11,993 bases of DNA. Source: Candidatus Heimdallarchaeota archaeon. Its GTDB lineage: Archaea > Asgardarchaeota > Heimdallarchaeia > Heimdallarchaeales > Heimdallarchaeaceae. Below the pieces are notes generated by a model. It was not told the DNA's origin and made no database searches. It was given only the letters and a program-made list of their open reading frames with translations. This document shows positions 3,294-11,993 of the stretch, piece after piece. Positions within the stretch are counted from its first letter, which is position 1. Every line of letters begins with the position of its first letter. The stretch covers positions 1 to 11,993 of the forward strand of contig JAAFKJ010000066.1 of the NCBI GenBank assembly GCA_021399395.1, read 5' to 3'. The position numbers were made by a program, and so were the translations under genes.

Positions 3294-3476
3294 TTAAGGA
3301 CCTGTAAAGTTGCATTTAGGACACACATAGTCATTTCCAAACAATCTACATTTCTTACATCGAACGATCATTACATCATTACAATTAGGACATGAAAAAC
3401 GTGTATCTCCTTCTTCGCTTGGACTGATTATCTTGTTACAGGAAGTGCATCTTGGCATACTTATTATTTTACTCAT
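3294..3476 (-). CDS. Small Zn-ribbon protein, DUF1610 / HVO_2753 family
   Basis: CTSC...F.CPNC...I.RC.KCR...Y.CPKCNF.GP pattern with four CxxC, and the conserved pairing with EF-1beta. ATG at 3476 (GTG at 3485 alternative). Confidence 0.92.
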   Translation of the reverse strand: MSKIISMPRCTSCNKIISPSEEGDTRFSCPNCNDVMIVRCKKCRLFGNDYVCPKCNFTGP

Positions 3477-3520
3477 CGTAACCACTTAATGATTATCTAT
3501 ACAGTTACGTTTTGATTGAT

Positions 3521-3535
3521 GTTTTAAGCTTTTTG
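3521..3535 (-). promoter_or_regulatory. BRE/TATA promoter for the DUF1610-ef1b operon
   Basis: The minus strand reads CAAAAAGCTTAAAAC (purine-rich BRE followed by a TATA-like box) about 45 nt upstream of the ATG. Confidence 0.5.
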
Positions 3536-3720
3536 AATTAACCCATTTTCTTTATTTTTCGATAAGAGGCTATTTACTGATTTGCAGATATTTATCGAAA
3601 TCGATTTTTTTGAAACTTATAAGTCTGTTCGAACGAAATTATCACAAAGATTATAATTGCTATTTGAACATCTTAAGTAAGAGGAATTACAATACTTTCA
3701 TCATTTAAAGGAAGATTTAC

Positions 3721-9853: not shown

Positions 9854-10525
9854 GTGAGATTAACTGTAAAAAACCGACCCCTGAGAACAACACATAGCTT
9901 CGAATATACATTCGACAATAAGCACGTGAAACTTTCAATATCTAAAAATTCCATTCTTCTGCCAGTGTTTGATGAAAACCAAAATAGACAGATAGGTTTT
10001 CTACTTGACGGTCCCATAGGGATAATCGCTGATTTACTTGTTCATACTAAAGAAGGAGCGGTAGGGGAGATTATAGAAGATACTTATTCAACAGCTCTTC
10101 TCTTCCCCGTCCAGCTTCCATTTCTTACAAAAGATCAAGTAAAAGAAATCCCACCTTTAGAAGAAACGGAAATTTATGAAGAAATTGTAAATAAATACAA
10201 GAGCCAAATTAAACGAGAGGATTATGTTACATATGAAGAGAAGAAAGGAATTATGATCCAAACCTATGATCCTGCTTCTTTGTGGTTTATAAATAAAGAT
10301 TCCACCTTCATGGTTGGGTCAGAAGAGATTATTGCGCGAAGAGGAGAGAAACGATTAATTTGGGTTGCTAAAGATTCTTTTACAACTGTAAACCGAACTG
10401 GCCAAATTCATTCTACAACAGATTTGTTTTCAATTAGAAAAGCTCGAAAAACCTTTCACAATATTCTAGATGTACCCCTTGCATTGATATTTTCAAGTTT
10501 GGGTGAAGTCTTTACTTCCTTCTAG
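9854..10525 (+). CDS. Hypothetical beta-rich protein, fourth gene of the operon
   Basis: 223 aa, GTG start with GGAGGA RBS, 17 nt after the regulator. Its stop overlaps the convergent MTase stop (CTAG). Confidence 0.8.
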   Translation: MRLTVKNRPLRTTHSFEYTFDNKHVKLSISKNSILLPVFDENQNRQIGFLLDGPIGIIADLLVHTKEGAVGEIIEDTYSTALLFPVQLPFLTKDQVKEIPPLEETEIYEEIVNKYKSQIKREDYVTYEEKKGIMIQTYDPASLWFINKDSTFMVGSEEIIARRGEKRLIWVAKDSFTTVNRTGQIHSTTDLFSIRKARKTFHNILDVPLALIFSSLGEVFTSF

Positions 10526-11508
10526 AAACCCTTTTTTTTCTTAAGATTATTTTTTATTTTTTCTGCAATTCCCCTAGATACTATTGGAGGGACTGATTCT
10601 CCCACTTGATTAAACATTTCCTCTACAGAACCCAAGAAATGAAAAGAATCAGGATAGGTTAGCAGTCTAGCTTGTTCTCGGATTGTTAAAGGACGATTTT
10701 CAGTAGGATGAATGAATCTCGATTTACCCATAACTGTTGGACAAACATCACTTTCATCAAGTTTTATCCAGTTTCGAAACTCCCCTTTTGCGCCTCCAAA
10801 ATGAACAGCAGCATCCCCTTTTCTCATTTTGAAAGCTTTACTTTCTGCTTGTTTAGCAAAGGGAAGGATAAAATGCCCTTGATAATCATTAGGATAATTT
10901 GGTGATGGTAAATCACCAATAGCACTACTTACTGTATGCACTTTTCGAGAAGGTAGATGCAATTTAAGATTTGATATGAACACTCTCCGTCTAACACTTG
11001 GACAACCATGTTTCTCTGCAGAGATATAATTGAAATGAATCTTATCATGACCGATGGTACTAAACTCTTCTTTGATTATACTTTGTGATTCCTTTTCAGC
11101 TATAGGGATGACATTTTCAATTATAAAGAAATCAGGTTCTAAGTCACCAATAATTCTTATAGCATGAAATATCAAATCACCTTGTGGATCATGATAAAAC
11201 CGTTCCCAGGGAGTTTTCATCCTTCGAGGATTAGCGGAGGTGAATGGTTCACAAGGAGGAGATGCCAATACTACATCGATTTTATCTTGCACATGTTCAA
11301 TAATTTTTAAACTATGGATTTTCCTTATATCATTTAAAATAACTTGGGAGTTTGGAAAATTCAGCTTATATGTATTAGCTGCAGTTTCAGTTTGCTCAAT
11401 AGCAAGTAAGTCATGAAATCCTAACATGTGAAAACCAAGGCTAAATCCTCCAGCTCCAGAAAATAAATCGATAAAACTATAGGATTTAGAAGTATTGCCA
11501 GTTTCCAT
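10522..11508 (-). CDS. dcm: C5-cytosine methyltransferase (Dcm family), orphan
   Basis: Motif I DLFSGAGG, motif IV SPPCEPF (catalytic PC), motif VI ENV, motif VIII PSVRRRVF, motif IX RPLTIREQARL, motif X QVGESVPP. GGTGA RBS. Confidence 0.92.
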   Translation of the reverse strand: METGNTSKSYSFIDLFSGAGGFSLGFHMLGFHDLLAIEQTETAANTYKLNFPNSQVILNDIRKIHSLKIIEHVQDKIDVVLASPPCEPFTSANPRRMKTPWERFYHDPQGDLIFHAIRIIGDLEPDFFIIENVIPIAEKESQSIIKEEFSTIGHDKIHFNYISAEKHGCPSVRRRVFISNLKLHLPSRKVHTVSSAIGDLPSPNYPNDYQGHFILPFAKQAESKAFKMRKGDAAVHFGGAKGEFRNWIKLDESDVCPTVMGKSRFIHPTENRPLTIREQARLLTYPDSFHFLGSVEEMFNQVGESVPPIVSRGIAEKIKNNLKKKKGF

Positions 11509-11566
11509 ACTATCACCAATTAGAGGATTCGGTGTTGTTTTTGTTTATTATAATTAACTGTTAGAA

Positions 11567-11645
11567 TGGTGGGGCAGGCAGGATTTGAACCTGCGACATC
11601 CGCTGTGTGAGAGCGGCATCATAGGCCGTGCTAGATCACTGCCCC
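11567..11645 (-). tRNA. tRNA-Val (anticodon CAC), CCA encoded, no intron
   Basis: GGGGCAG/CTGCCCC acceptor stem, anticodon arm CCGCT-CTCACAC-AGCGG, T arm GCAGG-TTCAAAT-CCTGC, ACCA end. Confidence 0.97.
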
Positions 11646-11708
11646 TAAACACGGGATGATTATTGAAATATTATTTATCTCTTATGTTTGCATCTTAAAA
11701 CAGAAATA

Positions 11709-11928
11709 ATGCTCCCGAGGTTAACTCTAAACATCATATTTAGGGAATTTCCCACATCAGTTAGTTGAGCTCCTCAGGAGCAACTGTTGTCCACCAGGGT
11801 TGCCCTTACTTCATTGTGTAGAGTCCTACTCTACTCCATAGGAGCCCGTTGGTAGTCTTTGGCCTTTTATTTGCACCTTCTTTCCTAGTTAGCTATCGCC
11901 ATCTCTAGAAAGTCCTCGATAAAGGCAT
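11709..11928 (-). ncRNA. Unassigned structured non-coding RNA candidate (~215 nt)
   Basis: About 46% GC (99/216 counted over 11711-11926) in AT-rich surroundings. No sizeable ORF, at least 8 helices, several of which need G-U pairs that form only on the minus strand. BRE/TATA-like AAAAAAG-TTCAATAT upstream and a U-rich tract downstream. No known family recognised. Confidence 0.6.
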
Positions 11929-11993
11929 AATATAACTCACTGTATCTATATTGAACTTTTTTGTCTAAGACTAATAGAGAGAAGAAAAGGAGA

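Follow-up and report, generated by a model that had tools for sequence, protein, structure and literature searches.

Contig JAAFKJ010000066.1 of a Candidatus Heimdallarchaeota archaeon (assembly GCA_021399395.1) was analysed along its whole 11,993 nucleotides (nt; hereafter the window), and near its end it carries, on the minus strand, a discrete RNA gene of ~225 nt running from 11926 to about 11700. We consider it highly probable (about 0.88) that this locus encodes a three-hairpin archaeal box H/ACA guide small RNA (sRNA), a diverged ortholog of the Pab40/Pf7/Pho40/Afu4 RNA (HgcG, Rfam family RF00064), with predicted targets in 23S ribosomal RNA (rRNA). The sRNA is a known kind of RNA and not a new RNA class. 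The original prediction had described a structured non-coding minus-strand RNA, which was borne out, and had offered ribozyme, ribonucleoprotein (RNP) scaffold or orphan guide scaffold as its nature; the guide scaffold held, but the RNA is no orphan, as rRNA targets could be assigned to it, and the ribozyme found no support.

The minus-strand fold of 11697-11962 reached -71.6 kcal/mol (z -3.07), which none of 200 dinucleotide shuffles equalled, whereas the plus-strand fold was weaker (z -1.21; equalled by 24 of 200 shuffles). No open reading frame (ORF) of at least 60 aa overlapped the sRNA locus, as had been claimed; the region is touched by four ORFs only, of 22-35 aa each, and a coding reading was rejected. 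The G+C content over 11703-11926 was 44.6% (about 46% had been claimed), against 34.3% for the genome.

The identity of the RNA came from a scan of 11500-11993 under an E-value threshold, in which RF00064 (HgcG/Pab40, box H/ACA) aligned along its entire model (positions 1-276 of 276) to 11703-11983 of the minus strand with 43.3 bits (E 1.1e-10), and no other Rfam family came close at the locus. The earlier exclusion of RNase P, SRP, rRNA and C/D sRNA was right. A significant Rfam hit had been named beforehand as the result that would turn the candidate into a known RNA, and in substance one was found, full-length and significant, yet under the gathering score of the family (77 bits); for that reason a default Rfam scan of the window returned the tRNA alone. 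RF00064 also matched the loci of 8 of 9 relatives at full length with 36-52 bits, again under the gathering score, and gave no match at E ≤0.01 in the ninth (L051). In the alignment the lower stems, boxes and guide cores corresponded motif by motif, with the three motifs in the same order. The first ~57 model positions are unstructured and, according to the published account of Pab40, lie upstream of the real transcript (PMC4652768), which is why the match reaches into the promoter here. A whole-genome search with RF00064 missed the locus and gave only an unrelated 11.8-bit match, a false negative of the prefilter, and negatives from it for weak RNA matches are untrustworthy.

A blastn search gave a single homolog in each of 23 of 24 congener genomes (73-94% identity), and nothing beyond one 29-nt match in the 16 genomes searched from three further families of the order. 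A covariance model, R1, built from 21 full-length copies of the sRNA, matched 29 of the 30 other genomes of the family, spanning 5 genera (three matches were cut by contig ends, and the single genome missed is 78% complete). Against the 16 genomes of the three other families R1 gave nothing full-length and one 25-bit partial match, and nothing in five of them re-searched with laxer filters, which means only that this sequence form was not found in the genomes searched.

Archaeal H/ACA RNAs are described as carrying a pocket hairpin, a kink-turn (K-turn) or K-loop 5-6 nt above the pocket and an ANA box 14-16 nt from the modified site, with target pairing of at least 8 bp that leaves a U-N unpaired and has no fewer than 3 bp to either side of it (PMC7991803). 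The RNA here has three such units, in each of which a pocket separates a lower from an upper stem and invariant tandem G-A positions lie 6-7 pairs above that pocket. Their parts are as follows.

11862-11926, minus strand: hairpin 1, defined by covariation and by invariant G-A and guide bases
11926-11921 / 11867-11862, minus strand: hairpin 1 lower stem, 6 bp (GCCUUU/AAAGGC)
11920-11913, minus strand: hairpin 1 5' guide, AUCGAGGA
11912-11907 / 11881-11876, minus strand: hairpin 1 upper stem, 6 bp (CUUUCU/AGAAGG)
11905-11904 opposite 11884-11883, minus strand: hairpin 1 K-turn (G11905 A11904 opposite G11884 A11883), with a 3-nt bulge at 11887-11885 and the closing pair G11903-C11888
11901-11890, minus strand: hairpin 1 tip stem-loop
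11875-11868, minus strand: hairpin 1 3' guide, UGCAAAUA
11858-11860, minus strand: ANA box 1 (AAA), 15 nt below the top of pocket 1
11793-11856, minus strand: hairpin 2 (atypical), defined by covariation and invariant guides
11856-11853 / 11796-11793, minus strand: hairpin 2 lower stem, short, with two possible registers
11852-11843, minus strand: hairpin 2 5' guide, CCAACGGGCU, long (10 nt)
11842-11837 / 11810-11804, minus strand: hairpin 2 upper stem, 6 pairs and one bulge
11836-11835 / 11812-11811, minus strand: hairpin 2 candidate tandem G-A (G11836 A11835 / G11812 A11811), with a 5-nt bulge at 11817-11813
11834-11818, minus strand: hairpin 2 tip hairpin, 7 bp
11803-11797, minus strand: hairpin 2 3' guide, GCAACCC
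11785-11787, minus strand: ACA box 2, 15-16 nt below the top of pocket 2
11710-11782, minus strand: hairpin 3, defined by covariation and by invariant GAU/AUGA and guides
11782-11772 / 11720-11710, minus strand: hairpin 3 lower stem, 10-11 bp
11771-11765, minus strand: hairpin 3 5' guide, AGCUCAA
11764-11760 / 11732-11727, minus strand: hairpin 3 upper stem, 5 bp (CUAAC/GUU(U)AG)
11758-11757 opposite 11735-11734, minus strand: hairpin 3 K-turn (G11758 A11757 opposite G11735 A11734), adjoining a U-U pair
within 11710-11782, minus strand: hairpin 3 tip stem, GGG/CCC
11726-11721, minus strand: hairpin 3 3' guide, AGUUAA
11708-11710, minus strand: position of the 3' box, 15-16 nt below pocket 3, AUU and not ANA

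The K-turn of hairpin 1, 6 bp and one A-A above its pocket, has GA/GA invariant in 20 of 20 sequences, and in the ANA box below it the first and third A are invariant while the middle base is A, U or C among homologs. Hairpin 3 carries an invariant GAU/AUGA with a 3-4-nt bulge, 5 bp and one U-U above its pocket. The invariant AGU/UGA of hairpin 2 can form tandem G-A pairs, giving an arrangement that, with its 5-nt bulge, is K-turn-like only. ACA box 2 was invariant in 21 congener sequences and is AUA in one more distant genus, and the 3' box among relatives is AUA in G008, G015, G005 and G002, AUU in G017 and others, and ACU in G007, G004 and G020; in many homologs an AUA stands 3 nt further on than the canonical place of this box.

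This structure is supported by covariation. RNAalifold proposed 50 pairs, 8 of them with compensatory changes, and the refined structure has 54 pairs in 9 helices with 96.5% of cells paired in 21 sequences, counted on a MAFFT alignment that was not fitted to structure; when the partners were slid by 1-3 columns as a control, 41-54% of cells were paired. Changes on both sides were seen in 11 pairs (60 cells), and 0 of 500 shuffles reached the observed covariation score. In hairpin 1 the covarying pairs lie in the upper stem (21:55, seen as UA 10, UG 6 and CG 4 times) and the tip stem (32:41 and 34:39), and in hairpin 2 in the upper stem (96:134, 98:131 and 99:130) and the tip hairpin (105:119 and 108:116). 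Three pairs of the hairpin 3 upper stem alternate between AAC/GUU and GGU/ACC, and its lower stem shows one-sided changes within the genus and compensatory changes in more distant genera.

Several helices drawn in the original prediction survived this comparison, namely GCCUUU/AAAGGC, UGGC/GCUA, GUAGAGU/ACUCUAC and, as the hairpin 3 tip stem, GGG/CCC, and its closing stem CUACCA/UGGUGG remains one of the two possible registers for hairpin 2. Others had to be redrawn: CUUUCUAG/CUAGGAAAG was in the wrong register, pair 21:55 favouring CUUUCU/AGAAGG, and the local hairpins GCUCC-UGA-GGAGC and CUAAAUA-UGA-UGUUUAG gave way to the long-range lower and upper stems of hairpin 3. The GGG-CAA-CCC hairpin is not conserved as pairs, CAACCC being an invariant single-stranded guide; the CUCC/GGAG pairs are not conserved either, and the long-range CGAGG/CCUCG, which would join a guide strand to a stem strand, gained no support.

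The guides are the most conserved part of the sRNA. In 20 of 20 sequences from 5 genera the bases UCGAGGA+GCAA (hairpin 1), ACGGGC+CAACCC (hairpin 2) and GCUC+GUUA (hairpin 3) were identical, while the pocket bases beside these cores vary. No LSU (large-subunit) or SSU (small-subunit) rRNA was found in the window's own assembly (2.8 Mb, 201 contigs), and targets were sought in LSU rRNAs from 10 genomes of the family, with SSU rRNAs available from 3; the scans covered LSU rRNA and one SSU rRNA (G014) and called contiguous pairs on both sides of an unpaired U-N with 0-2 unpaired guide bases at the top of the pocket. The best site for hairpin 1 was UUGC-UA-CCUCGAU, with 11 bp (4+7) and a score of 28 against 17-19 for the runner-up, and for hairpin 3 UAAC-UA-UGAGCU, with 10 bp (4+6) and a score of 24 against 21. 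Both sites were unique in three congener LSU rRNAs and in the LSU and SSU rRNA of G014, and both pairings have at least 8 bp, with at least 3 per side of the unpaired U-N. Shuffled guides matched the observed score in 1 of 500 cases for hairpin 1 and 6 of 500 for hairpin 3, and in 2 of 300 for each in a mismatch-tolerant scan. Read in the upper-stem register first proposed, the pocket of hairpin 1 had given no convincing target; the register corrected by covariation led to the unique one. The target sequences of all three hairpins were identical across the 10 LSU rRNAs examined.

An alignment with an annotated E. coli 23S gene puts the site of hairpin 3 at U1915, within the helix 69 loop, and that of hairpin 1 at position 2497 of the gene copy used, a C in E. 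coli. We judge this copy to be offset by +1 in domain V, the A-loop G being G2553 and the central uridine of the peptidyl-transferase centre (PTC) U2585 in standard numbering; with this offset the hairpin 1 site is standard E. coli 2496, which adjoins the PTC.

Hairpin 2 has more than one candidate. The third U of GGGUUUAG (standard U2586) pairs as GGGUU-UA-G(A)CCGUUG with 12 bp (5+7), one A-G mismatch and a score of 29; the A loop pairs as GGGGUUGU-UC-GCCC (standard U2555; U2555/U2554) with 7+4 bp and a score of 31 in genomes that have the U; and a third candidate near the LSU 3' end scores 28 and is missing in one genome. Shuffled guides reached 29 in 24 of 300 cases, so the score alone does not decide the target. 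U2586 is most likely the target, in preference to the A loop, since its pairing uses the whole of the invariant ACGGGC where that of the A loop uses only GGGC, and since all 10 rRNAs have the same sequence at the U2586 site, whereas 3 of the 10 carry an A for the A-loop U without any change in the guide. The geometry also matches that described for stem-loop (SL) 1 of Haloferax volcanii sR-h45, in which, of three U's, the first two pair with two A's of the 3' pocket strand and the last is modified (PMC7075261), and in the account of Muller et al. this is the site expected for motif 2 of Afu4/Pf7 (PMC2377435).

That the RNA is of H/ACA type but that one or more of its hairpins serve other or additional substrates (the A loop for hairpin 2, tRNA or other RNAs), or act mainly as chaperones of rRNA folding without catalysis, we regard as unlikely. 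The close competition between the A loop and U2586 (31 and 29 points in G014, G002 and G005) and the degenerate 3' box of hairpin 3 would suit such a reading, as would the report that a single base substitution changed the target of Pab40 motif 2 (PMC2377435). Against it, a single best site stands out for hairpin 1 and another for hairpin 3, in agreement with the sites determined experimentally for the Pab40 motifs in that account (for hairpin 1 as to domain and guide core), and the A-loop U is an A in G017, G021 and G041 with no change in the guide of hairpin 2.

Some features of the family rRNAs and guides were recorded alongside. The A loop reads UGUAC and not UGUUC in the LSU rRNAs L028 (G017), L029 (G021) and L078 (G041), from two genera, so that the equivalent of E. 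coli U2555, a very highly conserved position, is an A. The LSU rRNA matches L028, L029 and L080 (G017, G021 and G046) span 4136-4428 nt, compared with 3373-3578 elsewhere and a model of 2987 positions; upstream of helix 69 they hold 680-870 additional nt, which could be introns or large insertions. A single genus, represented by L063 and L064 (G045 and G046), has UG for AA at the end of the hairpin 3 5' guide, and with this ending the second U of the helix 69 loop (E. coli U1917 equivalent) would stay unpaired, which recalls the unpaired UNU arrangement described for SL2 of H. volcanii sR-h45 (PMC7075261).

The known RNA closest to this one is Pab40/Pf7/Pho40/Afu4 of Thermococcales and Archaeoglobus, which likewise has three H/ACA motifs per transcript in the same order and which, in the RF00064 alignment, shares the guide cores CGAGGA (motif 1) and AACCC (motif 2). 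As described by PMC2377435, Pab40 has three motifs, of which motif 1 guides 23S position 2588 in domain V (active in vitro, detected in vivo and conserved in eukaryotes) and motif 3 guides position 2016 in stem-loop 69, both sites being pseudouridine in eukaryotic large rRNA too; the domain of motif 1 and the stem-loop of motif 3 are those predicted here. The predicted motif 3 target, helix 69, is that of Pab40, and we infer from the shared guide core and domain that the motif 1 site is probably also the same. Motif 2 of Pab40 is atypical as well: the 5' strand of its pocket is long and its fold ambiguous (PMC2377435). For motif 2 of Afu4/Pf7 the same source discusses two assignments, the equivalent of the A-loop site, which had been proposed earlier for Afu4, and a site that is pseudouridine in Haloarcula and Halobacterium, and our hairpin 2 candidates match these two sites and not the Pab40-specific site 1932 it gives. 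The sRNA here differs from Pab40 in being AT-richer, in having a true K-turn and tip stem-loop in hairpin 1 where the Pab40 consensus has a K-loop, in the 7-bp tip hairpin and 5-nt bulge of the hairpin 2 interior, in the AUU of its 3' box, and in its host, a Heimdall-group Asgard archaeon and not a euryarchaeon.

Haloferax volcanii sR-h45 was compared by its published description. It has two stem-loops: SL1 guides the last U in a UUU run that lies between helices 90 and 93, and SL2 guides helix 69 (PMC7075261). Hairpins 2 and 3 here follow that order and are predicted to act on those sites; the G-A pairs of sR-h45, as described there, are not in a strict K-turn either. The first hairpin has no counterpart among the two described for sR-h45. 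According to the same description SL2 leaves UVUN unpaired and modifies two U's, whereas hairpin 3 here pairs the second U, so that only the U1915 equivalent is predicted as its target. Eukaryotic box H/ACA snoRNAs share the RNP chemistry and the ruler of 14-16 nt from box to site, but are described as lacking a K-turn and having two hairpins, with H and ACA boxes (PMC7991803), in contrast to the three hairpins with tandem G-A here; Rfam scans of the locus detected no homology to eukaryotic snoRNA families.

Several points weigh against the assignment as an H/ACA guide of this family. The RF00064 score of 43.3 bits lies under the 77-bit gathering score; the K-turn of hairpin 2 has a bulge of 5 nt and not 3, its lower stem can be drawn in two registers, its guide has two or three competing sites, and shuffles reach its score in the fraction given above; the 3' box in the window's own genome (G000) is AUU; all targets were read from rRNAs of congeners, the window's own assembly being without rRNA; and the transcript ends and the pseudouridines are predicted ones. 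The deviation of the AUU box is real but, in view of the findings of Majumder et al., need not abolish the function of hairpin 3. Two of these points, the score under the threshold and the branched, atypical hairpin 2, could also speak for a new structured RNA class, a ribozyme or RNP scaffold with a chance resemblance to H/ACA. We judge that very improbable, given an RF00064 alignment that is full-length and significant here and in 8 of 9 relatives' loci, modular H/ACA features that recur three times, and invariant pocket strands whose complementarity to known pseudouridylation sites is unlikely to be coincidence.

The proteins with which such an RNA would work are encoded in the same genome: Cbf5 (TIGR00425, 406 bits), Nop10 (PF04135, 60.8 bits), Gar1 (PF04410, 35.7 bits) and two genes of the L7Ae family (PF01248, 91.5 and 62.6 bits) were found, all over the curated cut-offs. 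From the homology, the covarying structure, the invariant guides with their complementarity and these partners, we infer RNP assembly and modification of the rRNA in the following manner. The sRNA would be transcribed from its own promoter and end at a T-tract; L7Ae would bind the K-turn of each hairpin and Cbf5-Nop10-Gar1 its lower stem and ANA box; and the two single strands of the internal loop would pair with 23S rRNA around an unpaired U-N, placing the U in Cbf5's active site, where it would be isomerised to pseudouridine. The predicted targets are the U aligned with E. coli 2496 for hairpin 1, U1915 in the helix 69 loop for hairpin 3 and, most likely, U2586 for hairpin 2, with the A loop (U2555/U2554) as the alternative.

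Traces of transcripts were looked for in public RNA data, where word matches to the stretch occurred in five RNA libraries and four metatranscriptome runs, from four studies, were aligned. Each of the four runs contained contigs of 157-190 nt, 90-99% alike, inside 11717-11915; one run also had a contig of the neighbouring tRNA, and none had one over the spacer between the two genes. The match of one 204-nt contig ends at 11927 and continues into a relative's promoter-like sequence, for which DNA carry-over or read-through is possible. These contigs, which carry no end or strand information, are a weak hint that the copies of relatives are expressed and no proof of transcription.

The signals flanking the sRNA and its annotated neighbours are as follows.

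11947-11965, minus strand: promoter block GACAAAAAAGTTCAATATA, resembling a B recognition element and TATA box (BRE/TATA), its centre lying ~26 nt upstream of where hairpin 1 starts
11697-11706, minus strand: T-rich tract UUUCUGUUUU, likely an archaeal terminator, predicted from sequence
11570-11645, minus strand: tRNA-Val(CAC), found by Rfam (58.4 bits) and ARAGORN, a neighbour outside the sRNA
10522-11508, minus strand: a 328-aa C-5 cytosine DNA methyltransferase (PF00145, 160.6 bits), downstream of the tRNA

The BRE/TATA-like element had been pointed out in the original prediction, and the block GACAAAAAA(G/C)TTCAA(T/G)A proved to be kept in 24 aligned homologs, where it is followed by a variable spacer of ~20 nt and then the conserved RNA start GCCUUU; an archaeal BRE/TATA promoter placed ~26 nt ahead of the start would be expected to show this layout of conserved block, variable spacer and conserved start. 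The T-tract after the 3' end and the tRNA-Val(CAC) downstream on the same strand were confirmed, and an oligo-T tract follows the sRNA in most homologs. Linkage to tRNA-Val(CAC) on the same strand was seen in 21 of 22 loci, within about 45-70 nt in 20 of them; in L067, of one genus, the tRNA lies about 870 nt off and the sRNA is still kept. A motif resembling AACAGAAAAAATAAATA is conserved in the spacer between sRNA and tRNA (11646-11696 in the window, and its counterparts in relatives), 25-30 nt ahead of the tRNA, and is probably the tRNA's own promoter, to judge by its sequence and place. With the T-tract on one side and a separate promoter motif in the spacer, the sRNA and tRNA-Val look like separate transcription units.

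The constancy of this linkage is what would favour reading the RNA as a 5' leader of tRNA-Val, or a precursor segment transcribed along with it, that has no separate function. We give this very little credence, since a T-tract lies 3' of the sRNA, the tRNA has its own conserved BRE/TATA-like motif about 25-30 nt upstream, the sRNA is kept in L067 despite the distant tRNA, and a leader would have no need of invariant rRNA-complementary loops. A mobile or repeated element of the kind of a miniature inverted-repeat transposable element was rejected and is the least probable of the readings considered, with nothing found in its favour: the sRNA is single-copy in its own genome by blastn (the other matches are chance hits of 14-60 nt), and it holds one syntenic position by tRNA-Val across 5 genera.

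The window is the whole contig, and the gene upstream of the sRNA is cut off at 11993. In the closest relative, G021 (L003:401-1468), the next gene upstream, on the strand of the sRNA, encodes a class I aminoacyl-tRNA synthetase of the Trp/Tyr type (PF00579, 144 bits).

The assignment gives a testable annotation for an RNA that standard pipelines miss, its score being under the Rfam gathering threshold, and our literature search found no description of H/ACA guides in Asgard archaea, a lineage thought close to eukaryotes. It places three predicted pseudouridines at functional centres of the LSU rRNA: beside the PTC, between helices 90 and 93, and in helix 69. More speculatively, and rather improbably on present evidence, the triple guide may predate the split of Euryarchaeota and Asgard archaea and have been kept in the Heimdall group, with hairpin 2, in its K-turn variant with the 5-nt bulge and its 10-nt 5' pocket strand, serving as a dual-specificity module for both U2586 and the A loop; were this true, the lineages with an A-loop U changed to A (3 of 10 rRNAs) would have lost one of the two modifications. 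Independently of this reading, the sRNA shows the three-motif architecture of Pab40/Afu4 and its predicted targets to be far older and more widely spread than one would gather from the RF00064 seed, drawn from Thermococcales, and adding these sequences to RF00064 would improve annotation.

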